From: a virus
Virus record (IMG/VR): IMGVR_UViG_3300027759_000056
Location: 32,001-96,000 of that record
Length of the DNA stretch: 64,000 bases
Direction: 5' to 3' (one strand)
In this document: positions 15,483-32,038 of the stretch, in pieces
Position numbering within the stretch: position 1 is the stretch's first letter
Layout of the letters: every line of letters begins with the position of its first letter
Notes under the pieces: generated by a model
What the model was told of the DNA's origin: nothing
Databases searched by the model: none
The model's input: only the letters and a program-made list of their open reading frames with translations
Translations under genes and position numbers: made by a program

Positions 15483-15509
15483 AAAAAAAAAGTCCTGATT
15501 TCTCAGGAC
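15483..15509 (-). terminator. intrinsic terminator, possibly regulated
   Basis: Minus strand GTCCTGA-GAAA-TCAGGAC-T9. Confidence 0.8.
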
Positions 15510-15526
15510 CCTTCTAAACACGTTTA

Positions 15527-15622
15527 TTATCTTTTTCGGCGTTTCAAAAGGGTCATAGGTTTATCAAACAATAACGATGGCGTACCGTTAAGATACACAA
15601 TCTCTGTTTGCCCAATATTCAT
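15527..15622 (-). CDS. putative 31-aa leader peptide MNIGQTEIVYLNGTPSLLFDKPMTLLKRRKR
   Basis: Short ORF between a TATTTAT motif and a terminator; its GACCCTTTTGAAAC segment pairs with GTTTAGAAGGGTC, which overlaps the terminator 5' arm. Confidence 0.5.
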   Translation of the reverse strand: MNIGQTEIVYLNGTPSLLFDKPMTLLKRRKR

Positions 15623-15697
15623 TGCCGTACAATTCATCTACACATAAATAGGTGTAAATGTTGAAAAAGTCAAATATTTTGTTTATCTTTCTATCAT

Positions 15698-18715: not shown

Positions 18716-19972
18716 ATGAGAAAAGTTTCTAAACAAAACATTAAAGAAGCTGTTGGTGTTCCAGCAAACATTGAAGTTGCATCACAGAATTTATATAATG
18801 ACATTGCAAAAAAATTAAAGAATAAAGAAATTGGTCCTGAGGATGTTGTTAAATTCAAATTTATTAACAAAGATGGTAGATATTCATTTGGAGATTTTAA
18901 TCCAAATTTTATAACCGCTGAGTTCGGTTTAGGTACTTATTCTGGTGATGCCATAGATAATAGTACCGGAAATAAAATAACGGGTGGGTTGGTTCACAGT
19001 ATGGGATTTTCAAAACAATCAAAATTAAATGATGTATTTGATTTGGTTAGTGTGGATGATGATGGTGGTATTGAATTAAATATTGATTATGCTCAACCTA
19101 ATGATGATGAAGAGTGGTCAGGGAATAAAATTTTGGACACAATGGAAAAAAACAAGTCCAATAGTATATCATCATTGGGGCATGAATTAAAACATGCTTA
19201 CGACAACTACAAAAAGCCGGTAGAAAAATTGGTTGATAGAAGCAATTATGCTGGATTTCAAAGGTCAAGGTCAGGAGTACGACCAATGGACCAATTTATG
19301 TTCAATATGTATTTTATAAATCAAATTGAAAATTTGGTTAGACCAACTGAATCATATGTTGAAATGGTTTCTGATGGTGTTGTAACAAAAGAACAATTCT
19401 TAAAGTTTTTGTTAAATTCAAAAACATATAAAACTTTGGTGCAAATACGTGACAGTTCATTTGATAATTTGGTTGAAGACTTAAAAGGTTACGAAACTGA
19501 AATTGATGATTACTTAAATAACACAGTTGATGATTATGATTCATCTTCATTAGACATTGATGATAAGGTAAAATACTTTCTAAAAGTATTTGCATTCGTA
19601 ACAGCACAAAAGGTTCACGAAGTAAGAAAACAAATGGTTTCTCCAAATATTTTTCAAATGTTATTTAGTAGTAGTTTATTTGGTGGTAATGATGAGGCTG
19701 ATAAATTTTTAGAAAGTACTTTAGGTGATTTAACCAAAATGATGGACAATCCAAATAAGTTTTACTACACTTCAATTGAAAACATGAAAAAAATTGCAAT
19801 TAAAATGATGAAAAAATTGTCAAAACTATACTCTTTAATTAACAAAGACAAAACAATCACTGTTGAAACAAGAGACCCTATGAGTTTTGAGATGGACCAA
19901 TTGATGAGAAAAACTCAAAAACCAAGAAAGATTGATACCAAGTTGGATGAAAGATTTACCAAAAAAAAATAA
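18716..19972 (+). CDS. probable virion protein with HExxH zincin motif
   Basis: LGHELKHAYD; N-terminal IKEAVGVP; TATTTAT upstream. Confidence 0.55.
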   Translation: MRKVSKQNIKEAVGVPANIEVASQNLYNDIAKKLKNKEIGPEDVVKFKFINKDGRYSFGDFNPNFITAEFGLGTYSGDAIDNSTGNKITGGLVHSMGFSKQSKLNDVFDLVSVDDDGGIELNIDYAQPNDDEEWSGNKILDTMEKNKSNSISSLGHELKHAYDNYKKPVEKLVDRSNYAGFQRSRSGVRPMDQFMFNMYFINQIENLVRPTESYVEMVSDGVVTKEQFLKFLLNSKTYKTLVQIRDSSFDNLVEDLKGYETEIDDYLNNTVDDYDSSSLDIDDKVKYFLKVFAFVTAQKVHEVRKQMVSPNIFQMLFSSSLFGGNDEADKFLESTLGDLTKMMDNPNKFYYTSIENMKKIAIKMMKKLSKLYSLINKDKTITVETRDPMSFEMDQLMRKTQKPRKIDTKLDERFTKKK

Positions 19973-19973
19973 T

Positions 19974-20210
19974 ATGATTACAATGGAAGACTTAAAAGAT
20001 TTTGACTTCACAAATGATAGTAAGGTTGAATTTATGACCAAACCAGGTTTTGTAGAAAAACGTATTCAACAAATGATTCAAATTGGTGCGAATGAAGAGT
20101 ATGAAAAATACAGTGAAGGAATGAGTGATGATGACATTGCAAAATGGAAAGAAGGGTTTGTAGTCGGAGCAAACTGGTTATTAAAAAATAAAAACGAAAA
20201 AAATATTTGA
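19974..20210 (+). CDS. small hypothetical protein
   Basis: ORF following 18716..19972. Confidence 0.45.
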   Translation: MITMEDLKDFDFTNDSKVEFMTKPGFVEKRIQQMIQIGANEEYEKYSEGMSDDDIAKWKEGFVVGANWLLKNKNEKNI

Positions 20211-20250
20211 CATATCAATAAACTTTTGTATCTTTGTACCATATTTAATA
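20206..20250 (+). promoter_or_regulatory. Bacteroidota-type promoter (TTTG...TATCTTTG) plus ATATTTAATA late-like motif, driving leader 1 and tRNA array 1
   Basis: TTTG 20206-20209, TATCTTTG 20229-20236, ATATTTAATA 20241-20250. Confidence 0.7.
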
Positions 20251-20259
20251 CTAAACACA

Positions 20260-20355
20260 ATGAAACTCGTAAATAAACAAATCGTGAAACATGTCATTCA
20301 ATTCTGTTCGAATTGGTATCTTCGCGTATTCGTAAGTTCGGGTGTTTTAAGTTAA
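20260..20355 (+). CDS. leader peptide 1, MKLVNKQIVKHVIQFCSNWYLRVFVSSGVLS (attenuator of tRNA array 1)
   Basis: 31-codon ORF between promoter and terminator; contains all 13 amino acids of the downstream tRNAs; AGTTCGGGT (20335-20343) is complementary to the terminator 5' arm. Confidence 0.8.
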   Translation: MKLVNKQIVKHVIQFCSNWYLRVFVSSGVLS

Positions 20356-20376
20356 CACATAGTAGCCTTAAAAAGG

Positions 20377-20407
20377 AAACCCGAACTCACAAGGTTCGGG
20401 TTTTTTT
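20377..20407 (+). terminator. attenuator terminator upstream of tRNA array 1
   Basis: AAACCCGAAC-TCACAAG-GTTCGGGTTTTTTT. Confidence 0.88.
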
Positions 20408-20415
20408 GTTTTTAA

Positions 20416-20426
20416 GTTCTTTGACA
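20416..20426 (+). promoter_or_regulatory. boxA-like antitermination element
   Basis: GTTCTTTGACA; near-identical copies precede array 2 and the tmRNA. Confidence 0.6.
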
Positions 20427-20443
20427 TGTTGGTAATCAAAAAT

Positions 20444-20516
20444 GGGACGGTAGCAAAGATGGTCAATGCGCTGGACTGAAAATCCAGTCATGGTGGTTCG
20501 AGTCCACCCCGTCCCA
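20444..20516 (+). tRNA. tRNA-Phe(GAA)
   Basis: CTGGA-CTGAAAA-TCCAG arm, cloverleaf. Confidence 0.9.
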
Positions 20517-20524
20517 CAATACAT

Positions 20525-20601
20525 TGGTGATTAGCTCAGTTGGTTAGAGCACTACGCTGATACCGTAGGGGTCACAGGTTCAAATCCTGTATCACCAACC
20601 A
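20525..20601 (+). tRNA. tRNA-Ile(GAT)
   Basis: CTACG-CTGATAC-CGTAG arm, encoded CCA. Confidence 0.92.
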
Positions 20602-20606
20602 TAAAT

Positions 20607-20677
20607 TACCCTTTCGTCTAACGGCAGGACGAGTGGTTTTGGTCCACTTAGTGGAGGTTCGAATCCTTCAGGGGTAA
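20607..20677 (+). tRNA. tRNA-Gln(TTG)
   Basis: AGTGG-TTTTGGT-CCACT arm, U1-A72. Confidence 0.9.
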
Positions 20678-20683
20678 CAATAT

Positions 20684-20757
20684 GACTTCGTAGCTCAATT
20701 GGCTAGAGCACCGTGCTTTTAACACGGGGGTTTCGGGTTCAAGTCCCGATGGGGTCA
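20684..20757 (+). tRNA. tRNA-Lys(TTT)
   Basis: CCGTG-CTTTTAA-CACGG arm. Confidence 0.92.
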
Positions 20758-20763
20758 CAATAT

Positions 20764-20836
20764 CTTTCCTTAGCTCAGTTGGAAGAGCACTTGGCTTACA
20801 TCCAAGATGTCGTTGGTTCAAATCCAACAGGAAAGA
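20764..20836 (+). tRNA. tRNA-Val(TAC)
   Basis: CTTGG-CTTACAT-CCAAG arm. Confidence 0.9.
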
Positions 20837-20843
20837 CAAAAAT

Positions 20844-20925
20844 GCCAGTATCGCATAGCGGCAATTGCGGCGGATTGTAAACCCGCTCTCATTTGAGTTC
20901 GTAGGTTCGAGTCCTACTGCTGGCA
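20844..20925 (+). tRNA. tRNA-Tyr(GTA)
   Basis: GCGGA-TTGTAAA-CCCGC arm, long variable arm. Confidence 0.9.
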
Positions 20926-20987
20926 CAAAACTTATAATCCTCCAAAACTCACTTTTTTTACTAGTTTTGGAGAGTTATAGAATATAA

Positions 20988-21061
20988 GTCCATATGCCTG
21001 AGAGGTTCAAAGGGACAGTCTGCAAAACTGTTATTCGTTGGTTCGATTCCAACTATGGACT
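20988..21061 (+). tRNA. tRNA-Cys(GCA)
   Basis: ACAGT-CTGCAAA-ACTGT arm, U73. Confidence 0.9.
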
Positions 21062-21063
21062 CT

Positions 21064-21138
21064 GTGACTGTAGTTCAGTGGTAGAGCATCGGCTTGTGGT
21101 GCCGAGTGTCGTGGGTTCGAATCCCATCAGTCACCCCA
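21064..21138 (+). tRNA. tRNA-His(GTG)
   Basis: TCGGC-TTGTGGT-GCCGA arm, C73, encoded CCA. Confidence 0.92.
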
Positions 21139-21143
21139 AATAC

Positions 21144-21226
21144 GGAAGTGGTCCGAATGGACGAGGACACCGCCTTGAAAGCGGCTGGCTGTAAAAGGCT
21201 TGGGGGTTCGATTCCCTTCTCTTCCG
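21144..21226 (+). tRNA. tRNA-Ser(TGA)
   Basis: CCGC-CTTGAAA-GCGG arm, long variable arm, G73. Confidence 0.88.
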
Positions 21227-21234
21227 CAAAAAAT

Positions 21235-21309
21235 GGTTCCTTAGTTTAATTGGATAAAACATCTCGCTACGGACGAGAAGATGTGGGGGTTCGAATCCCT
21301 CAGGAATCA
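21235..21309 (+). tRNA. tRNA-Arg(ACG)
   Basis: TCTCG-CTACGGA-CGAGA arm. Confidence 0.9.
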
Positions 21310-21316
21310 CAACTAC

Positions 21317-21387
21317 GTAAGTGTGGTGTAATGGTAGCATAAAGGTCTCCAAAACTTTTGGCGAGGGTTCGAGTCCTTCCACTTGCG
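21317..21387 (+). tRNA. tRNA-Trp(CCA)
   Basis: AAGGT-CTCCAAA-ACTTT arm, G73. Confidence 0.9.
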
Positions 21388-21393
21388 CAAAAT

Positions 21394-21475
21394 ACCAAAG
21401 TGGCGTAACGGTAGCCGCATTAGTCTTAGAAACTAATGTCCTAAGGGCGTGTGGGTTCGACTCCCACCTTTGGTA
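21394..21475 (+). tRNA. tRNA-Leu(TAG)
   Basis: TTAGT-CTTAGAA-ACTAA arm, long variable arm. Confidence 0.92.
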
Positions 21476-21486
21476 CAAAAATAAAT

Positions 21487-21568
21487 TGGCAGGTAGCCTA
21501 GAGGTCAGGCAGCAGACTGTTAATCTGCGACGGAAACGTCTACGTGGGTTCGATTCCCACCCTGTCAG
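21487..21568 (+). tRNA. tRNA-Asn(GTT) with atypical long variable arm
   Basis: GCAGA-CTGTTAA-TCTGC arm; GACG-GAAA-CGTC variable hairpin. Confidence 0.85.
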
Positions 21569-21613
21569 CAAAATATTTTTTGTAAAGTCAAATATCTGTT
21601 GTATATTTGTTGT

Positions 21614-22090
21614 ATGGAAAAGGGGTTTATATCATCTTCAAAAGCAATCAAAGGATATACTGAATCAAAAATTGCCAAATCTGAAAACAACGATTGTGTT
21701 GTTAGAGCAATTGCATCAGCTGCGGATATGGATTATGATTCCGCCCACCAATTCGTTAAAGAAACATTCAATAGAAAAAATGGTAAAGGTACTTTTGGAC
21801 TTGGTACTGGTATGAATTTGTTGTCAAAGAATGGTAAACAAATTAACGGTAAAAACATTCAAATTATTTCTGAAGAACACAACACCATGTTGTATTATGT
21901 GGTAGTTAAAGGTGTAAAAAAATTAAGAGCAACAACAACCGCATCATTCATCAAAAAACACCCTGTTGGTTCTTATGTGGTTGTTGTTAAAGGTCATGCG
22001 TTTACCATCAAAGATGGTGTTGTTATTGGTAACCCTGATGATGGTAAAAAAATGAAAAAACACATTACAGGGGCTTGGAAAATTGGATAA
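21614..22090 (+). CDS. conserved phage hypothetical protein (DCVVRA motif)
   Basis: NNDCVVRAIASA...GHAFTIKDG; TATATTTG promoter at 21602. Confidence 0.65.
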   Translation: MEKGFISSSKAIKGYTESKIAKSENNDCVVRAIASAADMDYDSAHQFVKETFNRKNGKGTFGLGTGMNLLSKNGKQINGKNIQIISEEHNTMLYYVVVKGVKKLRATTTASFIKKHPVGSYVVVVKGHAFTIKDGVVIGNPDDGKKMKKHITGAWKIG

Positions 22091-22117
22091 TATGTTTTAA
22101 CTTTGTATAACAATAAT

Positions 22118-22191
22118 GGTGTGGTAGCTCAGCAGGTAGAGCAGTAGATTGAAACCCTACGTGCCACGTGGTTCGATTCCCGTTCACACCA
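22118..22191 (+). tRNA. tRNA-Phe(GAA), second copy with irregular T-stem
   Basis: GGTGTGG/TCACACC acceptor, GTAG-ATTGAAACC-CTAC arm; own TAACTTTG promoter. Confidence 0.7.
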
Positions 22192-22195
22192 CAAA

Positions 22196-22330
22196 ATAAT
22201 TAGATGGGCGTAATGAGGGATGGTACCCGAGTCCCCAAGATTGGAGGTCACCAGTAATAGGTGGCCGTTGCGTCGTAAGGTTGTCTAATCCGTCCTGAAC
22301 GGTATTCGGTTCGAGTCCGACTCTAATTAT
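22196..22330 (+). ncRNA. tRNA-like structured RNA A (acceptor-like stem plus T-arm, expanded core)
   Basis: ATAATTAGA/TCTAATTAT closing stem; TCGG-TTCGAGT-CCGA T-arm; internal GGTCACC/GGTGGCC hairpin. Confidence 0.6.
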
Positions 22331-22336
22331 GAAAAA

Positions 22337-22402
22337 CTAACCCAGTTTCACAATGAGGGCTGATACCTTCGGAGTGGGGGTGACGGTCAGGAAAGACTGA
22401 CA
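22337..22402 (+). ncRNA. small structured RNA resembling C4/CI antisense RNA
   Basis: CAGTTTC-ACAAT-GAGGGCTG and CTTCGG hairpins; 3' TGACG-GTCAG-GAAAGA-CTGAC. Confidence 0.4.
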
Positions 22403-22407
22403 ACCAT

Positions 22408-22565
22408 AGTCAGGTGGCGGAATTGGTAGACGATAATGGAGTTATACTATCAAACACAGAGGGTGCGGCGTAGATGGGAACTACTACATTATCTCTTGGA
22501 CGCAAGAGAGCAATATAACCCTAACCATTTGGTATAACGTGTAGGTTCGAATCCTACCCTGACTA
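22408..22565 (+). ncRNA. tRNA-like RNA C with about 100 nt replacing the anticodon arm
   Basis: AGTCAGG/CCTGACT-A acceptor, Leu-type D arm TGGCGGAATTGGTAGACG, GTAGG-TTCGAAT-CCTAC T-arm. Confidence 0.7.
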
Positions 22566-22566
22566 C

Positions 22567-22660
22567 AAAAACATAAACTCAAGTACCCACACAGTGGTGA
22601 GACGGGCTAAGTAAGATACAATTCCTCGGAACTGGGAGTAGAGAGCTTGAGAGTGTTTTT
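22567..22660 (+). ncRNA. small structured RNA D
   Basis: AAAACAT..CTCAAG / CTTGAG..GTGTTTT closing helix around a GC-richer core. Confidence 0.4.
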
Positions 22661-22671
22661 TAATTAAAAAT

Positions 22672-23355
22672 ATGAAAAATTTAGTAAAAGCAATTATTTT
22701 GGTCATTGTTATAGGAATTTTAGGTTTCATAACAAGTTGGAAAGTTTGGGGTAACAATAAACCAATTGAAGATACCGTTAAAATTGATACGGTAAAAATT
22801 AAACCACAAGACACAATTGTGGATGTTAAAGGAAAATACGTTCTTTTTATTGGTGATTCACATACATCAAATCCTAATGGATGGCAAACAATCTTATCCA
22901 ACAAAACAAAGATGAGAATGAATAACATTTCTGTTGGTGGAAAAACTACAGGTTGGATGTTAGAAAGGGCAAAAGAATCAATTCACGAGAATTTAGATTA
23001 TTGTTTTATCTATGGTGGTGCCAATGATATGTTTAACAGTAAAATTACTATTGAAAGTGCCATAAAGAACATTCAAAGAATTGTTAATATTTGTAATTCC
23101 AAAGGTGTTAAACCAGTTGTGATTACGGGATTTGACCCCCTTACTTGTATTAACACACCAGAAAATCCAAACTATAAATTTAAGTATTCCAAATTTCAGA
23201 ATGAATTGATTAAAAAAATTGTTGGTGGAAAGGTGATTAATACTCGTGTGATTACAAAATCGGATTGTTGGGATGGACTTTGTCATATGGCACCATCAGG
23301 ACATAAAAAAATTGGAAATTGTGTTATCAAAGAAATGAAGTTTAAGACATATTAA
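22672..23355 (+). CDS. membrane-anchored SGNH/GDSL hydrolase
   Basis: FIGDSHT, GGAND, DGLCH motifs; N-terminal TM helix. Confidence 0.85.
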   Translation: MKNLVKAIILVIVIGILGFITSWKVWGNNKPIEDTVKIDTVKIKPQDTIVDVKGKYVLFIGDSHTSNPNGWQTILSNKTKMRMNNISVGGKTTGWMLERAKESIHENLDYCFIYGGANDMFNSKITIESAIKNIQRIVNICNSKGVKPVVITGFDPLTCINTPENPNYKFKYSKFQNELIKKIVGGKVINTRVITKSDCWDGLCHMAPSGHKKIGNCVIKEMKFKTY

Positions 23356-23376
23356 CACATCAGTATATTTATTGAT

Positions 23377-23814
23377 ATGGAAATTACAAAAAGAGACCTT
23401 TTAAATGGTTTATCATCAAAATCAAATCCAGCAACTGAAACTGCAGATGTGGTTGATATGATTGCAACATTACTTCATTCAAGAAATCAGGCTCATGTTT
23501 TTCATTGGCAAACAAAATCACAATCATCATTTGCTGAACATATGGCCTTAGGTACGTATTACGATGAGATTGTTGAATTAATTGATAATATTGTTGAAAG
23601 TTATCAAGGAAAATACGAAATAATTACTGGTTATAAAACAATTAAAACAGTTGATTATAAATCAACAGAACAAGTAATATCTTATTTTAAAGAATTAGAT
23701 GAAAATATTGAAAAAAATAGAACATCGGTTAAAGAATCCTATATTCAAAATCAAATTGATGGAGTTCAAGAATTGATTTACTCAACATTATACAAATTAA
23801 GATTCTTAAAATAA
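23377..23814 (+). CDS. ferritin/Dps-like phage protein (DUF5856-like)
   Basis: HVFHWQT..FAEHMALGTYYD..D.IVESYQGKY..STLYKLRFL. Confidence 0.75.
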   Translation: MEITKRDLLNGLSSKSNPATETADVVDMIATLLHSRNQAHVFHWQTKSQSSFAEHMALGTYYDEIVELIDNIVESYQGKYEIITGYKTIKTVDYKSTEQVISYFKELDENIEKNRTSVKESYIQNQIDGVQELIYSTLYKLRFLK

Positions 23815-23849
23815 TTGACGAATCACGGTTTTAAACATATATTTGCCTC

Positions 23850-24461
23850 ATGGCTAAATACACACTTAATACCTATGGATGGTCTTTTGAGGCTATCTGC
23901 AAATCTCTAACTGACGAACAAGTCCAAATTATTAAAGACAAAATGGAAGAAGAAGGTTTTTCGGAACTCCATGAAATCCGTTTTGATTTGGATGAACTAT
24001 TGGACCTTGATTTTTGGGACGGTGAAATATTTCACAAAACCGAAGCGTTTGACAATGGTACAATGCACTTTGAACTTCTTGATGAAGAAGAAAATAAAGT
24101 ATTAGAGTTTGGTATTGGTGAAACCGCCGACTTATACGAAACAATTGAAGATTTTGAAGAAAAGTATGAGTATAGAGGTTATAGTCCGATTCCTGAAGAA
24201 AAAGGACCAACCAATTTGTATTTAAGCATAGATGAAAACAAAGGTGGGATTTTTACATTCAAACTTGAATCTGATACCATACCGACACCATCGGATTTTA
24301 CTTACTCAACAGGTTCAATAGACACAACTGATGGTGATTATGATTTTATTGACAAAATTTTCTTTAAAGGACAACCATTAGAAATTGAAGATTGTTTGGA
24401 TAATTCAGGGAAATCATCCTCATGTATGATTTATACATTGGATGGTGAAACCATAGAATAA
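23850..24461 (+). CDS. acidic hypothetical protein
   Basis: Intact ORF; TATATTTG promoter at 23838. Confidence 0.6.
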   Translation: MAKYTLNTYGWSFEAICKSLTDEQVQIIKDKMEEEGFSELHEIRFDLDELLDLDFWDGEIFHKTEAFDNGTMHFELLDEEENKVLEFGIGETADLYETIEDFEEKYEYRGYSPIPEEKGPTNLYLSIDENKGGIFTFKLESDTIPTPSDFTYSTGSIDTTDGDYDFIDKIFFKGQPLEIEDCLDNSGKSSSCMIYTLDGETIE

Positions 24462-24465
24462 TTAT

Positions 24466-24539
24466 GGCGAGGTAGCTCAGTCGGTTAGAGCGCAGGATTC
24501 ATAACCCTGAGGTGGGGGGTTCAATTCCCTCCCTCGCTA
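24466..24539 (+). tRNA. tRNA-Met(CAT), elongator type
   Basis: GGCGAGG/CCTCGCT acceptor, CAGG-ATTCATAAC-CCTG arm. Confidence 0.88.
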
Positions 24540-24568
24540 CAAATACATAATTGTGAGTATTTATATAT

Positions 24569-26122
24569 ATGATTTTATTTGAAGGTCGTAAGGAAGACTC
24601 ATTTAAGAAATTCCAAAAAAGTATTGATGGTGAAAGAAAGATGATATCCACTTACATGGATGATGCGTCTGCGTATGATTTTTTAATTGGTGAACCTTTT
24701 ATAAAAGAGACTAATTACAAATATCTTAATGATATTTTGGATTATTATTATACCGTAAATTATTATTCAGGTGAAGCTGAGCCTTTAGACAAAGACAAAG
24801 CAAGAAATCTAATATTTGGAATGAGGAGTGAAATTGACAAGATTGTTGCTTCTTTAGAAACATTTGAAAAACACAAATCCAAATTCAAATATCCTGAGTT
24901 TAGAAAATACAATACAAATATAGAAGATTTTTTTAAGGAAGCTCAAAAGATTAAAACTGACGTTGAGACCAAACAGATTGAAAAATCCGCCAAGAAAGAA
25001 ATAGATAAAATTTTTGAAAACGATACGTTGTTGGTTATAAAACCAAAATCATTTACAGCATCTTGTTATTATGGTTCAGGTACAAAATGGTGTACAACAA
25101 TGAAAGGTAATCCATCGTACTTTAATCAATATAGCTCAAGTGGAAACTTGTATTATTTAATATTAAAAAATGTTGATAGAAGTAACAAGTTTTACAAAAT
25201 GGCTATTCACGCACCAAAGAATAAAAGATTTGATGAAGCTTCAATTTGGTACGATTCAACTGACGAAAGATTAACATCAAGAGAAAAAGAATCTGTATTA
25301 GCTCATATGCCAAAAGACGCTTATAATGCAATGGTTAATGACTATAAAACTTCATTCCCTGAAGAGAATCCAATAGATATTATTTACAAGATAATGCCAA
25401 ATGTGAACCAAAATGTGGATGATTATGTATATAAATTCAAAGGTGGTGAAATAGAATTGGCAATTGATTCACCTGAGATTGAAGATACTGACACAAATAG
25501 TCTTAGAATTAGTTCTACTTGGGGTATATCGGAACAAAGAAATGGTAAAGAGGTTTATCATGAAGATGGTGCCATTGATTGTTATTTGGAATCTTATCCA
25601 AATCAAGTGTTATTACCAAACTATTACATAGTTAAAATAAGTTATGAGATAATACCATATTCAGATACTAAAATTGTTGAAAGATATGATGGTACTACAA
25701 CATTACAACTTGACAACGAAAGAAAAAACGACCCAGAATATGTTAGAATACAACTTAACGGTGCATTAAAACAAATATTTGACGGTTTCCAAAATAAAAT
25801 GGAGTATAGACTTAGAAATGATGAGGATTTATTAGAGAAATATCCACCAACAAAGTCTAAAGCTTATACCATGTCAAAATACACCTTCACAGGTAAAGGA
25901 GCGTTAACCAAAGCATTTATGGAATATCTTAAAAACATTCCTGAAGGTAAGGTCGGTAATAAGAACGAATTTTTAACTCAAATAGGTAGAAGAAGTGGTC
26001 CTGGTCAATATAGTAGTTTCTTTTCAGCGTCAAATATGGCAGGTATTAGTGCCAGACAAGGAAAAAGTGGTTTGGTTAAAGGACCAAACTTTGACAAATT
26101 TTACAAGAAAATATTTGAATAA
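24569..26122 (+). CDS. probable head-packaged protein with 'YGSGTKWCT' domain
   Basis: MILFEGRKED N-terminus; ASCYYGSGTKWCTT motif; TATTTAT upstream. Confidence 0.6.
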   Translation: MILFEGRKEDSFKKFQKSIDGERKMISTYMDDASAYDFLIGEPFIKETNYKYLNDILDYYYTVNYYSGEAEPLDKDKARNLIFGMRSEIDKIVASLETFEKHKSKFKYPEFRKYNTNIEDFFKEAQKIKTDVETKQIEKSAKKEIDKIFENDTLLVIKPKSFTASCYYGSGTKWCTTMKGNPSYFNQYSSSGNLYYLILKNVDRSNKFYKMAIHAPKNKRFDEASIWYDSTDERLTSREKESVLAHMPKDAYNAMVNDYKTSFPEENPIDIIYKIMPNVNQNVDDYVYKFKGGEIELAIDSPEIEDTDTNSLRISSTWGISEQRNGKEVYHEDGAIDCYLESYPNQVLLPNYYIVKISYEIIPYSDTKIVERYDGTTTLQLDNERKNDPEYVRIQLNGALKQIFDGFQNKMEYRLRNDEDLLEKYPPTKSKAYTMSKYTFTGKGALTKAFMEYLKNIPEGKVGNKNEFLTQIGRRSGPGQYSSFFSASNMAGISARQGKSGLVKGPNFDKFYKKIFE

Positions 26123-26150
26123 TTCTTATTAGTGTCTTATACTTTTGATA

Positions 26151-27419
26151 ATGGAAAAATTATCAAATGTAGGGAACAATATTGTGGGCTCTGAAATTAT
26201 TAAAATCTCACAACAAATCAAAGAAATTGCTAAAACAAAATCAGTATCTAACCTAACCATAGGTGACTTTAATTCCAAACTATGGCCAATACCCTCAAAA
26301 TTAAGAGAACACATTCAAGATGCGTATGAGTGGGATTTAACCAACTATCCAAACTCACAAGGAGAACTTGAATTAAGAGAATCCGTATCCAAACACATTA
26401 AACATCAGTTCAATGTTGATTATTCACCTGAAGAAATATTAATTGGTGGTGGAGTTCGTCCATTAATTTATACGGTTTATAAAGCCACGGTAAATCCAAA
26501 TGAAGAGGTGATTTATCCTGTACCATCTTGGAATAATAACCACTATTGTTTTTTACATAACGCAAAAAAAGAAGAAATTGAATGTACACCTGAAAATTCA
26601 TTTTTCCCAACCGTTGAAGATGTTGACGGCAGAATAAGTGATAAAACATCATTGGTTTGTATTTGTTCACCGCAAAATCCAACAGGTCGTGTAATTGACC
26701 CCGAAGTTCTGAAAGGTATTTGTGAGTTGATTGTGAGAGAAAATAAAATCAGGTCAACACAAGTAGGTTCAAGACCATTGTATTTGTTCTTTGACCAGAT
26801 TTATTCTGACATCACCAAAGAAGGTTTGTTTATCCACCCATTAACTTTATGTCCTGAAATCAGAGATTATTTGATTTGTGCTGATGGTATTTCAAAGTCA
26901 TTAAACGCAACTGGTGTTCGTGTTGGTTGGTTGTTTGGTCCAAAAGATATTATTGGAAAGATGACCGAAGTTTTGTCTCACATTGGAGCATGGGCTCCAA
27001 AACCTGAACAACGAGCATTGGATGCGTACATCAGAGAAGATTATGAAGATTACATTTCTCACATTAACTATGTAACAAAATCGTACGAATTTATATCAGA
27101 TAAAATATGTGGTAAGTTGGAAGAATTGAAAAACAAAGGTCATAATGTTGATTACCAAAAACCTGATGGTGGAATTTATATTTCGGTTTATTTGGGTTAT
27201 GTTCATTCATTTCCAACAACTGAAGAGTATATTTCGTTCTTAATTAATACCTGTGGGTTGGGAATTGTTCCGTTTGAATATTTTGGTTCAAAGAGTAACA
27301 AAGGATGGTTTAGAATATCAATTGGTAATGTTGCCGAGTTAAATTTGGACTCAATTATTAAAACAATTGAAAATTCTGTACAAAAATCAGTAAGTTATGT
27401 AAATTCTTTAGCATTTTAA
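26151..27419 (+). CDS. PLP-dependent class I/II aminotransferase (aspartate aminotransferase-like)
   Basis: CSPQNPTG, FDQIY, DGISKSLNATGVRVGW (PLP Lys), GWFRIS. Confidence 0.9.
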   Translation: MEKLSNVGNNIVGSEIIKISQQIKEIAKTKSVSNLTIGDFNSKLWPIPSKLREHIQDAYEWDLTNYPNSQGELELRESVSKHIKHQFNVDYSPEEILIGGGVRPLIYTVYKATVNPNEEVIYPVPSWNNNHYCFLHNAKKEEIECTPENSFFPTVEDVDGRISDKTSLVCICSPQNPTGRVIDPEVLKGICELIVRENKIRSTQVGSRPLYLFFDQIYSDITKEGLFIHPLTLCPEIRDYLICADGISKSLNATGVRVGWLFGPKDIIGKMTEVLSHIGAWAPKPEQRALDAYIREDYEDYISHINYVTKSYEFISDKICGKLEELKNKGHNVDYQKPDGGIYISVYLGYVHSFPTTEEYISFLINTCGLGIVPFEYFGSKSNKGWFRISIGNVAELNLDSIIKTIENSVQKSVSYVNSLAF

Positions 27420-27476
27420 TTGACACTTTTCAAAAGTTTGATATATTTAATAAGAAATTAAATAATAATACATTCA

Positions 27477-27545
27477 ATGATTACCATCAACATATTCGGC
27501 ACACCAGCAACAGAGGCTGATACTTCCAAAGTGGAGATGGGATAA
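27477..27545 (+). CDS. leader peptide 2, MITINIFGTPATEADTSKVEMG (attenuator of tRNA array 2)
   Basis: 22-codon ORF after ATATTTAATA; GAGATGGG (27534-27541) is complementary to terminator 5' arm CCCATCTC; amino acids match the downstream tRNAs. Confidence 0.75.
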   Translation: MITINIFGTPATEADTSKVEMG

Positions 27546-27566
27546 TATTGTAAAAAAATATCTTAC

Positions 27567-27598
27567 AAAAACCCATCTCAAAAGGATGGGTTTTTTTT
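27567..27598 (+). terminator. attenuator terminator upstream of tRNA array 2
   Basis: AAAAACCCATC-TCAAAAG-GATGGGTTTTTTTT. Confidence 0.88.
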
Positions 27599-27605
27599 GT
27601 GTTTG

Positions 27606-27677
27606 TTTGGCAGTATCAAAAAAATGTATTAACTTTGTAGTGTTGAAAAACACAACAGAACAAAAAAGTTCTTTGAC
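27606..27677 (+). promoter_or_regulatory. Bacteroidota-type promoter plus boxA-like element
   Basis: TTTG 27606, TAACTTTG 27630-27637, GTTCTTTGAC 27668-27677. Confidence 0.65.
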
Positions 27678-27696
27678 GTATTGGTAAGAAAAAATT

Positions 27697-27768
27697 GCTC
27701 GGTTCATCTATCGGTTAGGATGCTAGGTTTTCATCCTAGAAAGAGGGGTTCGACTCCCCTACCGAGTA
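27697..27768 (+). tRNA. tRNA-Glu(TTC)
   Basis: CTAGG-TTTTCAT-CCTAG arm. Confidence 0.9.
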
Positions 27769-27777
27769 CAAATAAAT

Positions 27778-27852
27778 AGCGGGGTGGAGCAGAGGTAGCT
27801 TGCGAGGCTCATAACCTTGAGGTCACAGGTTCGAATCCTGTCCCCGCTACCA
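27778..27852 (+). tRNA. tRNA-Met(CAT), initiator-like body with A1-U72
   Basis: AGCGGGG/CCCCGCT-A-CCA; CGAGG-CTCATAA-CCTTG. Confidence 0.9.
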
Positions 27853-27860
27853 AAATAAAT

Positions 27861-27934
27861 CGCGAGTTGGTGTAATGGTAACATAATGGGCTCATAACCC
27901 ATAGTTCCGAGTTCGAGTCTCGGGTTCGCAACCA
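27861..27934 (+). tRNA. tRNA-fMet(CAT)
   Basis: C1:A72 mismatch, GGG/CCC anticodon stem, encoded CCA. Confidence 0.9.
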
Positions 27935-27935
27935 A

Positions 27936-28150
27936 TGGATGTAACTTGGGTCGTGCCACATTGGCCACTTTTACATCAAGAGTCAGAAGGATTAGAGGTG
28001 GCCGTGACTACTCTGACTCGAATACAAAGTACCACGATGCTTACCGTAAGAACAGCACAGTGGTAGATAGAGTTAACGTGAATAACCCAAGGCATAAGCG
28101 TTAACAACCCCCAATAAGACTATTTGGCCAATAGAAACTGTTGGGGTTAT
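27936..28150 (+). ncRNA. structured RNA: five consecutive large-loop hairpins
   Basis: GATGTAA/TTACATC, GAGTCAGA/TCTGACTC, TACCAC/GTGGTA, GTTAACG/CGTTAAC, CCCCAA/TTGGGG stems. Confidence 0.55.
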
Positions 28151-28155
28151 TAAAA

Positions 28156-28227
28156 GCGAGTGTAGTATAAAGGCTATTACTCCAGCCTTCCAAGCTGGAT
28201 ATGCGAGTTCGATTCTCGCCACTCGCT
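28156..28227 (+). tRNA. tRNA-Gly(TCC)
   Basis: CCAGC-CTTCCAA-GCTGG arm, U73. Confidence 0.92.
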
Positions 28228-28230
28228 CAA

Positions 28231-28430
28231 AAAGAACCTTTTCTTACGGAAGTCCGATTAGCGCGGATGAAAGGAACCTTGACTTCACGGGAGTAGCTAC
28301 CCAATTGAAGCTTGAATGACTCAAGGTACTCTGTAATGGACCCTGCTCTATGGTGCACACATAACAGGTGATGGGGAACAAACCATCGGTAAAATCTAAA
28401 CCCACGGTGAGCGTGGAAGGAAAGTTTCTT
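28231..28430 (+). ncRNA. about 200-nt multi-branched structured RNA of unknown class
   Basis: AAGAACCTTTTCTT/AAGGAAAGTTTCTT closing helix; internal TCCG/CGGA, CCTTGA/TCAAGG, CCTG/CAGG, GATGG/CCATC, CCACG/CGTGG helices. Confidence 0.6.
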
Positions 28431-28436
28431 TTTTTT

Positions 28437-28511
28437 GCGGGAGTAGCTCAGGGGTAGAGCTTCAGTTTACCAAACTGAAAGTCGAAGGTTCGAATCCTTT
28501 TTCCCGCTCCA
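28437..28511 (+). tRNA. tRNA-Gly(ACC), rare A34 anticodon
   Basis: GCGGGAG/TTCCCGC-T-CCA Gly-type acceptor; TCAGT-TTACCAA-ACTGA. Confidence 0.85.
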
Positions 28512-28579
28512 AATGTAAATCTTAAAAAGGGCCCTTCCGTGTTTATCACGGCTTGTTGGGCCCGGGTTTACTAACTTAC

Positions 28580-28651
28580 GGTCCTGTAGTTAATCGGCTA
28601 TAATATTGCCCTGTCACGGCAAAGTGCCGGGTTCGATTCCCGGTGGGACCG
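28580..28651 (+). tRNA. tRNA-Asp(GTC)
   Basis: TTGCC-CTGTCAC-GGCAA arm, G73. Confidence 0.9.
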
Positions 28652-28662
28652 CAAAAATAAAA

Positions 28663-28732
28663 GGGCCTGATGTCAACGGCAGACCGTTTGATTTGCAATC
28701 AGAACGTATGGGTTCGATTCCCACAGTGTCCA
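28663..28732 (+). tRNA. tRNA-Ala(TGC), atypical (bulged acceptor, short D arm)
   Basis: TTTGA-TTTGCAA-TCAGA arm; G3:U70 pair and A73. Confidence 0.75.
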
Positions 28733-28741
28733 CAAACAAAT

Positions 28742-28817
28742 AGCGTAGTAGAGGAGTCAGGTTTATCTCATCTGCTTTGGGAGCAGAGGCACGCTGGTTC
28801 GAATCCAGTCTACGCTA
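28742..28817 (+). tRNA. tRNA-Pro(TGG)
   Basis: TCTGC-TTTGGGA-GCAGA arm. Confidence 0.9.
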
Positions 28818-28850
28818 CTAATTATAAAAAAAATTTACTATCTTTGTAAC

Positions 28851-29138
28851 ATGAAAAACATATTAAAAGACCCCCGATTTTATTTTTTCCTATGGATTGT
28901 TCTATCTATTATTCTTGCCATTACGTTAGGAGCTTGTAAACAGAAACCTTTGATTGAAAAAGGTGATGTAGTTGAAAAGTTCGTTATTGATTCAATGGTT
29001 CAATTGCCACCTCACAGCACAATTGAACTTGACAGGAAGTACAAGTATTTCATGTCAGACAGCAGTGAGTTTACTTCTTTGAAGAAATATAACATTGGTG
29101 ATACAATCACTTATGTTTACAAAAAACAAGGAAAGTAA
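28851..29138 (+). CDS. small lipoprotein
   Basis: Hydrophobic signal with LGAC lipobox; TATCTTTG at 28839. Confidence 0.6.
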   Translation: MKNILKDPRFYFFLWIVLSIILAITLGACKQKPLIEKGDVVEKFVIDSMVQLPPHSTIELDRKYKYFMSDSSEFTSLKKYNIGDTITYVYKKQGK

Positions 29139-29157
29139 TATATATTAAAACATAAAT

Positions 29158-29234
29158 GCCTGAATAGCTTTAATTGGTAGAGCACCTGACTTGTAATCAG
29201 GGGGTTGGCGGTTCGAGTCCGTCTTCAGGCTCCA
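29158..29234 (+). tRNA. tRNA-Thr(TGT)
   Basis: CCTGA-CTTGTAA-TCAGG arm, encoded CCA. Confidence 0.92.
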
Positions 29235-29246
29235 AACACAATAATC

Positions 29247-29432
29247 ATGGACCCCAAGACTCAAATGACGCAGGAAGATTTTTTAACTGAATTGACTGAA
29301 TTAAGTCAGTCATTTGGATTGTATGGTGAAAATGACAACTTTGGTGTTGATGGAGTTTACATACATACCCAACCAGAAATGTACATATGTCCGTGGGATA
29401 ATACTCAAGGGGATTGTACTCATTTCAACTAA
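29247..29432 (+). CDS. small hypothetical protein
   Basis: ORF between tRNAs; ATG 29247. Confidence 0.45.
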   Translation: MDPKTQMTQEDFLTELTELSQSFGLYGENDNFGVDGVYIHTQPEMYICPWDNTQGDCTHFN

Positions 29433-29437
29433 TATTT

Positions 29438-29511
29438 GGACGGGTAGCTCAACAGGTTAGAGCAGGATGCTTATATCATCAAGGTTGGGGGTTCAAGTCC
29501 CTTCTCGTCTA
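29438..29511 (+). tRNA. tRNA-Ile(TAT), rare in bacteria
   Basis: GATG-CTTATAT-CATC arm, GGACGGG/CTCGTCT acceptor, A73. Confidence 0.82.
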
Positions 29512-29525
29512 CTAAAAATTTAATT

Positions 29526-30098
29526 ATGAGCAACGAATATAATCAATGGTATTGGAAACTTTATAGATGGTTCAGATGGGACGCTAAACATCTTCATCGT
29601 GATATTGCACAGGGTTTTAGAAACCTATGGAAATGGTTACCAATAATTTGGAAAGACCGTGATTGGGATGACCATTTTATTTTTGAAGTTTTGAAATTCA
29701 AAATCAAGAATACCGCCAAGTATACAGAAAAAAAACAAAGGTTTGTTGGTTGGGAAAAAGAAGTTAGATATATGAGAATATGTGAAACTTTAATTGATAG
29801 AATTCAAAATGAGTATTATCAGATGGAGTATCAAGATTATCATGATTTTGATATTAGTACGGTACCAACAGAAGATGGTTTGTATGAAGTTGTCTTTGAT
29901 GTTAAACGTGATGATACTGATGAATTTGTTAAAAAATACCCACACGCTCTAAGAAAAGCAAAAAAAGACCCAAGATTTAAGAGTTATTTTAAGAATGAAA
30001 GAAATGGTTATCTTGCTGTGGGTATGATTAGACACGAAAAAGCAAGAAAACTGTTATTCAAAATTTTGGAACAAAGAATTGAGCGTTGGTGGGATTGA
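29526..30098 (+). CDS. conserved phage hypothetical protein (Trp-rich)
   Basis: WLPIIWKDRDWD...IERWWD. Confidence 0.65.
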   Translation: MSNEYNQWYWKLYRWFRWDAKHLHRDIAQGFRNLWKWLPIIWKDRDWDDHFIFEVLKFKIKNTAKYTEKKQRFVGWEKEVRYMRICETLIDRIQNEYYQMEYQDYHDFDISTVPTEDGLYEVVFDVKRDDTDEFVKKYPHALRKAKKDPRFKSYFKNERNGYLAVGMIRHEKARKLLFKILEQRIERWWD

Positions 30099-30126
30099 TT
30101 TTTTTCACTATATTTGTATAACAAAT

Positions 30127-30200
30127 GGACCTTTAGCTCAGTTGGTCAGAGCGGCTGACTCATAATCAGTAGGTCGTAGGTTCAAGCCCTACAGGGTCCA
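30127..30200 (+). tRNA. tRNA-Ile2(CAT, lysidine type), possibly Met
   Basis: GGACCTTTAGCTCAG 5' end typical of Ile2; GCTGA-CTCATAA-TCAGT. Confidence 0.85.
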
Positions 30201-30203
30201 CAA

Positions 30204-30389
30204 ATGAAACAAAAAATGTATAGACCAAAAATTGACCGAGTTATTGGTGGAGTATGTTCTGGTATTGCATACCACGTAGACATTGACCCAATTTTTGTTC
30301 GAGTATTATTCTCAATATTAATTTTTAGTCCACTCCCAATTATCTTTGCTTATTTATTATTTTGGTTTTTTACACCAGGTGGTGAATAA
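30204..30389 (+). CDS. pspC: PspC-domain membrane protein
   Basis: YRPKIDRVIGGVCSGIAYHVDIDPIFVRV...AYLLFW. Confidence 0.85.
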   Translation: MKQKMYRPKIDRVIGGVCSGIAYHVDIDPIFVRVLFSILIFSPLPIIFAYLLFWFFTPGGE

Positions 30390-30456
30390 AAAGTTTTAAT
30401 ACCTGATTTATATCAGTTTTTTTTGTATTTATTTAGTAAATAACACTTTTTTACTA

Positions 30457-31372: not shown

Positions 31373-32038
31373 ATGGAAATGACTTATCCCGTAGCCGGAG
31401 AAACCTTTAATAGTAACTCATCATTTGGTATGAGAGGAACTGGTACACACAAAGGAATTGACCTTAAAGCCGATTCTGGTGACCGTGTAGTTGCCGCTTT
31501 ACCAGGTACTGTAATAAAATCAGACGATAATACTGACCCACAAGGTTATGGTGGACAAATATTAATTAAACACAATATTGACGGTGATATTTTTTATACT
31601 CGTTATGCTCACTTAAGAAAAAGATATGTTCAAGTAAATGAGAACGTTTCTCAGGGTGAAAAAATTGGAGAATCAGGTGGTGGTGAAGGTGATGCAAATA
31701 GAGGTAGAGCAACTGGTCCACATTTACATTTTGAATTATTAGATTACGGTCAAAAAGCAATTGACCCTGAACCATACTTAAAAGGTGCTTTAGCGGTTGG
31801 AGCTGCGGGTCTTGTTGCTGGAGGAACAAATAGTGGAAGTACAAGTTCATCAGGCTCAACTCTTAATACCGACGCTGCTGGAAAAGCGGTTGATAAAATT
31901 ATGGCTGGGTTTATGAAAGGATATTCACCTATAGGTTATTTATCATCACTAAAAGGATTGTCTGAACCAAAAAAAGAATCGGAAATTTCAAAACCAATAC
32001 TTGAAGATATAGAACGAATTAAACAACTCTTAAAATAA
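31373..32038 (+). CDS. M23-family peptidoglycan endopeptidase
   Basis: HKGID, YAHL, TGPHLHFE motifs. Confidence 0.9.
   Translation: MEMTYPVAGETFNSNSSFGMRGTGTHKGIDLKADSGDRVVAALPGTVIKSDDNTDPQGYGGQILIKHNIDGDIFYTRYAHLRKRYVQVNENVSQGEKIGESGGGEGDANRGRATGPHLHFELLDYGQKAIDPEPYLKGALAVGAAGLVAGGTNSGSTSSSGSTLNTDAAGKAVDKIMAGFMKGYSPIGYLSSLKGLSEPKKESEISKPILEDIERIKQLLK

Follow-up and report, generated by a model that had tools for sequence, protein, structure and literature searches.

To our knowledge, all described leader-peptide attenuators regulate either amino-acid biosynthesis enzymes or tRNA synthetases. In E. coli, an attenuator of this kind with the pheM leader acts on the tRNA synthetase operon pheST, where the translation machinery is controlled through the decoding of cognate codons. 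One amino acid is sensed there by a run of Phe codons, and the target is a protein-coding operon. T-box riboswitches likewise respond to the condition of one particular tRNA, with a terminator and an antiterminator as alternatives ahead of genes for translation or amino-acid supply. The genes for phage tRNAs are usually discussed only for codon usage or for escape from tRNA-cleaving defences, and the control of their expression is largely unknown. In this study, we analysed a stretch of 64,000 nucleotides (positions 32,001 to 96,000 of IMG/VR virus record IMGVR_UViG_3300027759_000056; the window), in which a promoter, a short leader open reading frame (ORF), an intrinsic terminator and a boxA-like box precede an array of 13 tRNA genes. 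The module is likely to be a ribosome-mediated leader-peptide transcription attenuator that gates the phage tRNA operon by sensing the decoding of the array's own codons. A T-box needs no translation, as it makes direct contact with the tRNA by means of its specifier codon and T-box sequence, whereas the sensor here would be an ORF; no T-box match at E<=0.1 was found by Rfam in 19800-30400. Rfam holds no family for the leader (a Thr_leader hit of 27.8 bits lay under the gathering score of 55 and was not counted), and full-text literature searches on phage tRNA genes or arrays together with attenuation-type control returned no published account.

The virus is a freshwater phage of Bacteroidota. 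The window is AT-rich, with a G+C content of 33%, and all 29 tRNA genes called by ARAGORN in the 112-kb single-contig genome fall inside it. Module 1 lies on the plus strand. Its promoter (20206..20236) is of the Bacteroidota type, with a -33 TTTG at 20206-20209, a spacer of 19 nt and a -7 TAtcTTTG at 20229-20236; the consensus is TTTG/TANNTTTG with a G at -5 (PMC6847099), and the predicted transcription start is at about 20241. Leader ORF 1 (20260..20355) begins with ATG and has 31 codons and a TAA stop. It has no Shine-Dalgarno site, the normal state of Bacteroidota mRNAs (PMC6847099). The strong intrinsic terminator 1 (20377..20407) has its 5' arm at 20377-20387, its loop at 20388-20392, its 3' arm at 20393-20403 and a U-tract to 20407. 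It is followed by the boxA-like box, a 19-mer at 20416..20434, and by the array of closely packed tRNA genes (20444..21569; ARAGORN and Rfam tRNA matches) in the order Phe(gaa), Ile(gat), Gln(ttg), Lys(ttt), Val(tac), Tyr(gta), Cys(gca), His(gtg), Ser(tga), Arg(acg), Trp(cca), Leu(tag) and Asn(gtt). The initial annotation of this DNA had named these five parts, and each was present where it had been placed. Inspection of the sequence between terminator 1 and tRNA-Phe revealed no promoter-like site. Array 1 is only a part of the phage tRNA set, the 29 genes including those of a second array at 27697-30201.

The terminator and the end of the leader share one strand. The 5' strand of the antiterminator, AGTTCGGGT (20335..20343), lies within codons 26-28 of leader ORF 1 and is exactly complementary to ACCCGAACT (20379-20387) in the 5' arm of the terminator, as had been proposed; that arm thus serves both structures. 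In isolation, the antiterminator hairpin has a folding energy of -17.2 kcal/mol (z = -3.2), and the duplex of the leader tail with the terminator arm reaches -15.5 kcal/mol, versus -5.7 +/- 2.2 with shuffled tails. The 7-bp extension TTTTAAG/CTTAAAA, which the initial annotation had added to this helix, did not stand: it is lost without compensation in four close relatives (L004-L007) and was excluded from the switch for this reason.

The composition of the leader peptide had first drawn attention to the locus. As annotated, the peptide is built from 15 amino acids, namely all 13 of array 1, the start Met and one Gly, and Ala, Asp, Glu, Pro and Thr are absent. All 13 tRNAs of the array have at least one cognate codon in the ORF. 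With Met and Trp set aside, 23/28 codons for array amino acids are wobble-readable by the array 1 anticodons, in agreement with the claim that most of them would be. In the head of the leader (codons 2-21), defined as the codons at which the footprint of a ribosome would not reach the antiterminator strand, 20/20 residues belong to the array set and cognate codons for 12/13 tRNAs are present. The stronger claim, that the leader contains exactly the amino acids of the array, holds within the window (29/30 residues), but the window is an extreme case; across leader families this exactness does not hold, and coverage is the conserved property. Even within the window the match has to be read with caution. 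Among 160 ATG-initiated ORFs of 25-40 codons in the six frames, 4 hold all 13 amino acids and 2 of these also lack the five absent ones. One of the two is leader ORF 1 itself, so 1/159 other ORFs passes, and in AT-rich DNA out-of-frame ORFs lean to a composition like that of leader 1. The composition match in this window alone is suggestive and not decisive, as a coincidence would not be astronomically rare. Such a match proves little, and the case must therefore rest on comparison.

In close IMG/VR relatives of the locus (L001 and L003-L007), the promoter, ORF, switch and box are kept, and the differences lie mainly in codons 17-30; the first 48 nt of the leader ORF are identical in seven close relatives. 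Wider sampling of viral (IMG/VR) and metagenome contigs was anchored on the box and was thus independent of the leader. An intrinsic terminator was sought at most 175 nt upstream of the box, the longest ATG-initiated ORF of 12-45 codons was taken whose stop fell between 45 nt upstream and 12 nt downstream of the point where the terminator 5' arm begins, and all ARAGORN tRNA genes behind the box were recorded. This gave 41 unique IMG/VR modules and 75 unique metagenome modules, which form 27 leader families (<50% identity) ahead of tRNA arrays of varied content. An ORF was present in 88/88 metagenome units that have a terminator, a box and an array. The leader ORFs of the 27 families start with ATG and have 22-44 codons, and the distance from the stop to the terminator 5' arm is 19-35 nt in all modules. 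When the rule was tightened to 20-45 codons and a stop at 15-40 nt from the arm, an ORF was found in 27/27 families versus 6.5% of shuffled upstream regions, with a product over the families of 5e-33. The second codon is AAA in 19/27 families, and the Bacteroidota promoter motif lies upstream of 18/27. Among 17 unique coding-sequence variants of the window's own family, the first, second and third codon positions have 11, 9 and 19 variable sites, respectively. The leader peptides vary widely among families, and there are motifs common to the leaders of many families.

The content of the leaders was then compared with that of the arrays, using coverage (the share of array amino-acid kinds found in the leader) and precision (the fraction of residues in the leader that belong to amino acids of the array); arrays were shuffled among leader families to obtain the null. 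In 18 families, with that of the window left out, coverage was 0.972 versus 0.826 +/- 0.042 and precision 0.398 versus 0.287 +/- 0.021 (p<=1e-4 each). Eight metagenome families new to the first set gave p = 0.0018 for precision and p = 0.037 for coverage, and the 27 families pooled gave p<=2e-5 on all measures. To guard against shared descent, obviously related families were merged into 11 superfamilies, which, again without the window, gave p = 5e-6 for precision, 8e-5 for coverage and 5e-6 for anticodon coverage. The covariation of leader and array for which the initial annotation had asked a test in relatives was thus recovered in independent families, in a second collection and with the window left out. 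For 149/153 tRNAs of the pooled families, the leader of the same module contains a wobble-cognate codon. When windows were taken from real proteins encoded at these loci, coverage was 0.72 and precision 0.30. The result was stable for limits on the gaps within an array from 120 to 1500 nt, and the rise of precision to 0.58 at the largest limit suggests that tRNA genes on the far side of small ORFs and spacers are also part of the unit.

The match extends to the choice and the position of codons. When synonymous codons were redrawn by local usage, 108.3 +/- 1.75 of 117 tRNAs were covered, versus 115 observed (P<1/2000), which indicates that the codon choice itself is tuned. The head of the leader alone covers 108/117 tRNAs and the tail 43/117, with a precision of 0.48 versus 0.29 (Fisher p = 1.4e-5). 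A ribosome stalled in the tail would stay on the antiterminator strand and favour termination, so that a stalling model needs its cognate codons in the head. In the head of the window's family, 16/17 non-synonymous codon variants stay within the array set, for an expected share of 0.75; this support is marginal. Single changes of array content are in part followed by the leader. One locus that has lost tRNA-Glu has also lost both Glu codons of its family (L122), and three with an added tRNA-Met have internal Met codons (L131, L194 and L231), while no internal Met codon occurs in the WIN1-type leaders and in those of L137/L151, where the arrays lack tRNA-Met. An exception to the tracking of Met is L178/L218, where an internal Met codon occurs without tRNA-Met.

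A second module in the same genome, also on the plus strand, provides an internal comparison. Its promoter (27420..27449) has TTG at 27420-27422, a spacer of 19 nt and TAtaTTTA at 27442-27449. Leader ORF 2 (27477..27545) has 22 codons and a TAA stop and contains Thr, Pro, Ala, Glu, Asp, Gly, Met and an ATA codon, the set missing from leader 1. The antiterminator strand GAGATGGG (27534..27541) lies in its last codons. Terminator 2 (27569..27598) has a 5' arm at 27569-27578, a 3' arm at 27584-27593 and a U-tract to 27598; CCCATCTC (27572-27579), in the 5' arm, pairs with the leader 2 tail in a duplex of -15.1 kcal/mol, versus -6.5 +/- 2.0 for shuffled tails. The same box as in module 1 (27668..27686) precedes array 2 (27697..30201), with tRNA genes for Glu, Met, Met, Gly(tcc), Gly(acc), Asp, Ala(tgc), Pro, Thr, Ile(tat) and Met, interspersed with structured spacers and small ORFs. 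The tRNA-Ala(tgc) gene (28663-28732) is recognised in the window by Rfam only (29.5 bits) and is called by ARAGORN in two relatives (L200 and L267). Leader 2 has a cognate codon for each of the 8 anticodons that ARAGORN assigns to array 2. Leader 1 covers 13/13 amino acids of its own array and leader 2 covers 7/7, as opposed to only 2/7 and 6/13, respectively, of the other array, and this asymmetry is repeated in three further two-module genomes. Because tRNAs act in trans on all mRNAs, a match that is specific to the module within one genome points to control in cis and would be hard to explain by codon usage.

The pairing of switch strands was assessed across families by matching the end of each leader (its final 12 codons and a further 9 nt) with the 5' arm of the terminator. 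With their own arms, the leaders gave a mean of -13.5 kcal/mol versus -7.9 +/- 0.6 with the arms of other families, and 0/20,000 shuffles reached the observed value (p<=5e-5). A helix of 8-11 bp between the ORF tail and its own terminator 5' arm is present in 16/19 families. Its sequence differs by family (for example the GTTCGGG, GTTCAGG, GAGATGG, ATCTCGG and ACTTAGGG types), and pairing that is kept despite such differences is equivalent to compensatory change. In every case, the antiterminator strand is placed within the final 3-12 codons of the ORF or reaches its stop. The trp/his-type geometry assigned to the locus at the outset is supported by an ORF tail that pairs with its own terminator arm and by cognate codons that lie upstream of that strand.

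From the observed architecture, the conserved ORF, the covariation of antiterminator and terminator, the codon-anticodon match and the position of the codons, we propose the following scheme, in which translation of the ORF, the direction of the switch and the natural trigger are deduced from how the parts are arranged and from how the trp, his and ilv leaders behave. The transcript would start at the Bacteroidota-type promoter and a ribosome would load on the 31-codon leader, whose first ~20 codons would present at least one cognate codon for nearly each array tRNA. If decoding is quick, the ribosome at the last codons or the stop would cover AGTTCGGGT, the terminator hairpin would form and transcription would end at 20407. 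If decoding is slow at any of the test codons, the cognate charged tRNA being scarce, cleaved or uncharged, the ribosome would wait upstream, the free strand would pair with the terminator 5' arm and RNA polymerase would read through. The polymerase would then pass the boxA-like site, which probably recruits host rRNA-type antitermination factors, and make the 13 tRNAs. The build-up of tRNAs would speed translation of the leader and close the gate, a negative feedback that would be separate for each array. Single codons would suit the severe loss of one tRNA better than graded starvation, which fits, but does not prove, the idea of a sensor of tRNA cleavage or host shut-off; cleavage by defence nucleases as the natural trigger is a guess. 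As a tentative extension, the leaders might be per-array sensors of tRNA integrity that serve counter-defence, in which an anticodon nuclease or shut-off would stall the ribosome at a single test codon and open the matching array, a many-input OR gate that would be widespread in Bacteroidota phages. Relatives of the stretch occur in four metatranscriptome runs, with contigs from RNA libraries that cover the array, and one relative's metatranscriptome contig spans the 3' half of the leader, the terminator, the box and four tRNAs. This bridging contig is compatible with read-through.

Several observations weigh against the proposed attenuator. The bridging contig is the sole RNA evidence, and it may stem from DNA carry-over; contigs of this kind give neither the ends of a transcript nor its strand or level, and parts that they leave uncovered are uninformative. 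The indication of a trp-like 1:2 helix, which would hold the antiterminator strand in RNA that is not translated and act as a pause signal, is weak (pairing probability 0.61 versus 0.53 for shuffled heads; Wilcoxon p = 0.017), and several families have no such helix. Short-term tracking of the array is loose: relatives whose arrays are cut to Phe-Ile-Gln keep the same leader (L003, L084, L174 and L204), and one without tRNA-Leu and tRNA-Asn keeps the codons for both (L137). A change of Ser17 to Gln in relatives without tRNA-Ser was considered as covariation and dropped, since another locus has Ser17 without tRNA-Ser (L195). In most families, roughly one leader residue in two is not of the array set, and each tRNA is represented by one or few scattered codons with no tandem runs as in the his, leu and phe leaders, so that a low sensitivity to mild tRNA shortage is to be expected. 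Families with <50% identity may share descent, which would make the permutation p-values somewhat optimistic. In module 2, a promoter-like site between terminator 2 and box 2 (27606..27637, plus strand; TTTG, 20 nt, TAacTTTG) would bypass the attenuator. Comparable sites occur in relatives whose gap between terminator and box is long.

Some of these points would be expected if the module were a real leader-ORF attenuator that senses translation in general, such as free ribosomes, elongation rate or stress, with an incidental codon content. Single scattered codons are poor at sensing one tRNA, and the many leader residues outside the array set would need no further account. The genome also contains a third unit of leader ORF, antiterminator and terminator (15483-15637, minus strand), with a 36-codon ORF whose tail pairs with the 5' side of the terminator. 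This unit precedes an HNH-type gene, followed by tRNA-Leu(taa) with its own promoter; it has no codon inventory, no box and no tRNA array directly behind it, and its position ahead of the HNH gene indicates that the phage uses the device for other genes too. A general sensor nevertheless leaves unexplained that two leaders in one genome each match only their own array, that 149/153 tRNAs are covered by codons whose choice exceeds synonymous redrawing, and that cognate codons cluster upstream of the antiterminator strand, and we regard it as improbable.

We give less weight still to two further accounts. The leader might be an ordinary small protein gene with a promoter and terminator of its own, the tRNAs arising by leaky read-through or from elsewhere and the match reflecting chance or shared descent. 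The specific pairing of the ORF tail with its own terminator arm, which the terminator of a plain gene would not need, makes this very unlikely, as do the absence of a promoter-like site before tRNA-Phe, the size of the peptides (just 22-44 residues, widely different between families) and the superfamily permutation without the window (p ~1e-5); in its favour are the one other short ORF of the window (1/159) that passes the same strict rule, the shared motifs, which show that leaders of many families are related, and the retention of the leader in close relatives whose array shrinks. Equally hard to sustain is the view that the stretch from promoter to terminator is a small non-coding RNA, or an antiterminator controlled by protein or RNA, in which the ORF is incidental. 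Identity of the first 48 nt of the ORF in the seven close relatives would agree with it, as would the ACATA motif, which is fixed at nt 12-19 of the ORF in 19/27 families and occurs in all three frames. A frame of 22-44 codons at a fixed distance from the terminator, found in all the families and in so few of the shuffles, would not be expected of such an RNA; the third codon positions vary most, AAA is the second codon in 19/27 families, and Rfam holds no matching family. The attenuator that reads the codons of its own array is the interpretation that we favour.

The 112-kb genome has just two copies of the boxA-like box, both 25-30 nt upstream of the tRNA gene that opens an array, and many viral and metagenome contigs have the box at 24-34 nt from the first tRNA of arrays of very different content. 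The 19-mer of box 1 is identical to an element 12-35 nt before 23S rRNA in Bacteroidota rrn spacers, and its matches in bacterial genomes are mostly in Bacteroidota. In two loci (L289 and L339), the box lies in the 16S-23S spacer, 12-27 nt before 23S rRNA (Rfam), and a 23S 5' end follows 48/115 boxes in bacterial contigs. None of 123 boxes in 120 bacterial loci directly precedes a tRNA, so that no host module occurs in that sample, which is not proof of absence. The box resembles the boxA consensus of E. coli, where antitermination at such sites of rRNA operons is NusB/NusE-dependent. Its position and this likeness make a borrowed rRNA-type antitermination site, which would protect a long untranslated transcript, the most likely identity. 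In host rRNA operons the same sequence is present ahead of rRNA, as an rrn-type boxA site would be, whereas here it stands behind an attenuator and ahead of phage tRNA genes. The box also precedes large structured non-coding RNAs in many viral contigs (L008, L014, L026, L032, L056, L077 and others), and in two loci it follows tRNA-Gln, ahead of a protein gene (L003 and L010).

The ACATA motif of the leader ORFs deserves separate mention, as 1.5 families would be expected to have it at its fixed position (examples are window 27490-27494 and loci L048, L089 and L134). Its occurrence in all three reading frames indicates that it acts at the nucleotide level, and it may be a pause or loading signal. 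ACATA is also part of the box consensus (GACATATTGG) at most loci, but the boxes of the window have GACATG and GACGTA.

Other features of the arrays and their surroundings were also noted. In array 1, the sole long spacer, between tRNA-Tyr and tRNA-Cys, holds a hairpin at 20936-20975 (CTCCAAAACT ... AGTTTTGGAG). A tRNA-like gene with an insert of ~85 nt lies at 22408-22565 (Rfam tRNA, 30.5 bits across 158 nt). Array 2 contains two structured non-tRNA spacers of ~210 nt (27935-28155 and 28229-28436); a match to the Rfam freshwater-1 RNA (RF02979) at 28332-28394, also inside this array, scores 73.8 bits against a gathering score of 72. Among the relatives, three have a strongly divergent first tRNA-Phe (L005 3424-3497, L006 6138-6211 and L007 807-880) behind a near-identical leader with a few codon changes near its 3' end, which suggests that single tRNA genes are exchanged as cassettes. 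One relative has a tRNA with a cta anticodon (amber-reading; ARAGORN label 'Pyl') directly upstream of the leader promoter (L001 5291-5363). A PHROGs search of the neighbouring ORFs returned only families of unknown function and weak tail-fibre matches. In INPHARED phage records, the blastn matches were confined to single tRNAs, and no relative of the leader appeared among them. A search for related loci with the upstream 418-aa protein as query found none, and an exact 19-mer search gave a single match (L002), which lies inside a coding region and was rejected as chance.

If the proposed control is real, leader-peptide attenuation, a textbook device of amino-acid operons, also governs operons of non-coding RNA, and one short ORF reports on a dozen tRNA species together. 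Phages would regulate each set of tRNAs by feedback from decoding, and a testable link would exist between tRNA depletion in infected cells and the response of the phage. The module would also be a compact natural design for multi-input translation sensors, and its signature of promoter, ORF, antiterminator, terminator and boxA-like box would help to annotate tRNA operons in Bacteroidota phages.

The leaders of enterobacterial amino-acid operons (ilvGMEDA for Ile/Leu/Val, thr for Thr/Ile, trp, his, leu and pheA) share with this locus a short leader ORF followed by an intrinsic terminator, a terminator 5' arm that can pair instead with the closing part of the ORF, the choice being made there by the position of the ribosome, as it would be here, and regulatory codons that are cognate to what the operon supplies. 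The regulated genes here, unlike those of such operons, are tRNA genes and not enzymes, and the quantity that is fed back would be tRNA supply rather than amino-acid supply. The his, leu, phe and thr leaders have tandem regulatory codons and the trp leader has two, whereas up to 13 tRNAs are sampled here, mostly by one or few scattered codons (in most cases 1-2 per tRNA). The element also differs in its occurrence in phages of Bacteroidota and in a helix of the 1:2 type that is not clearly present. It would work like the multivalent attenuators of amino-acid operons, but it has neither the tandem codons nor the enzyme-coding targets that are usual in them.

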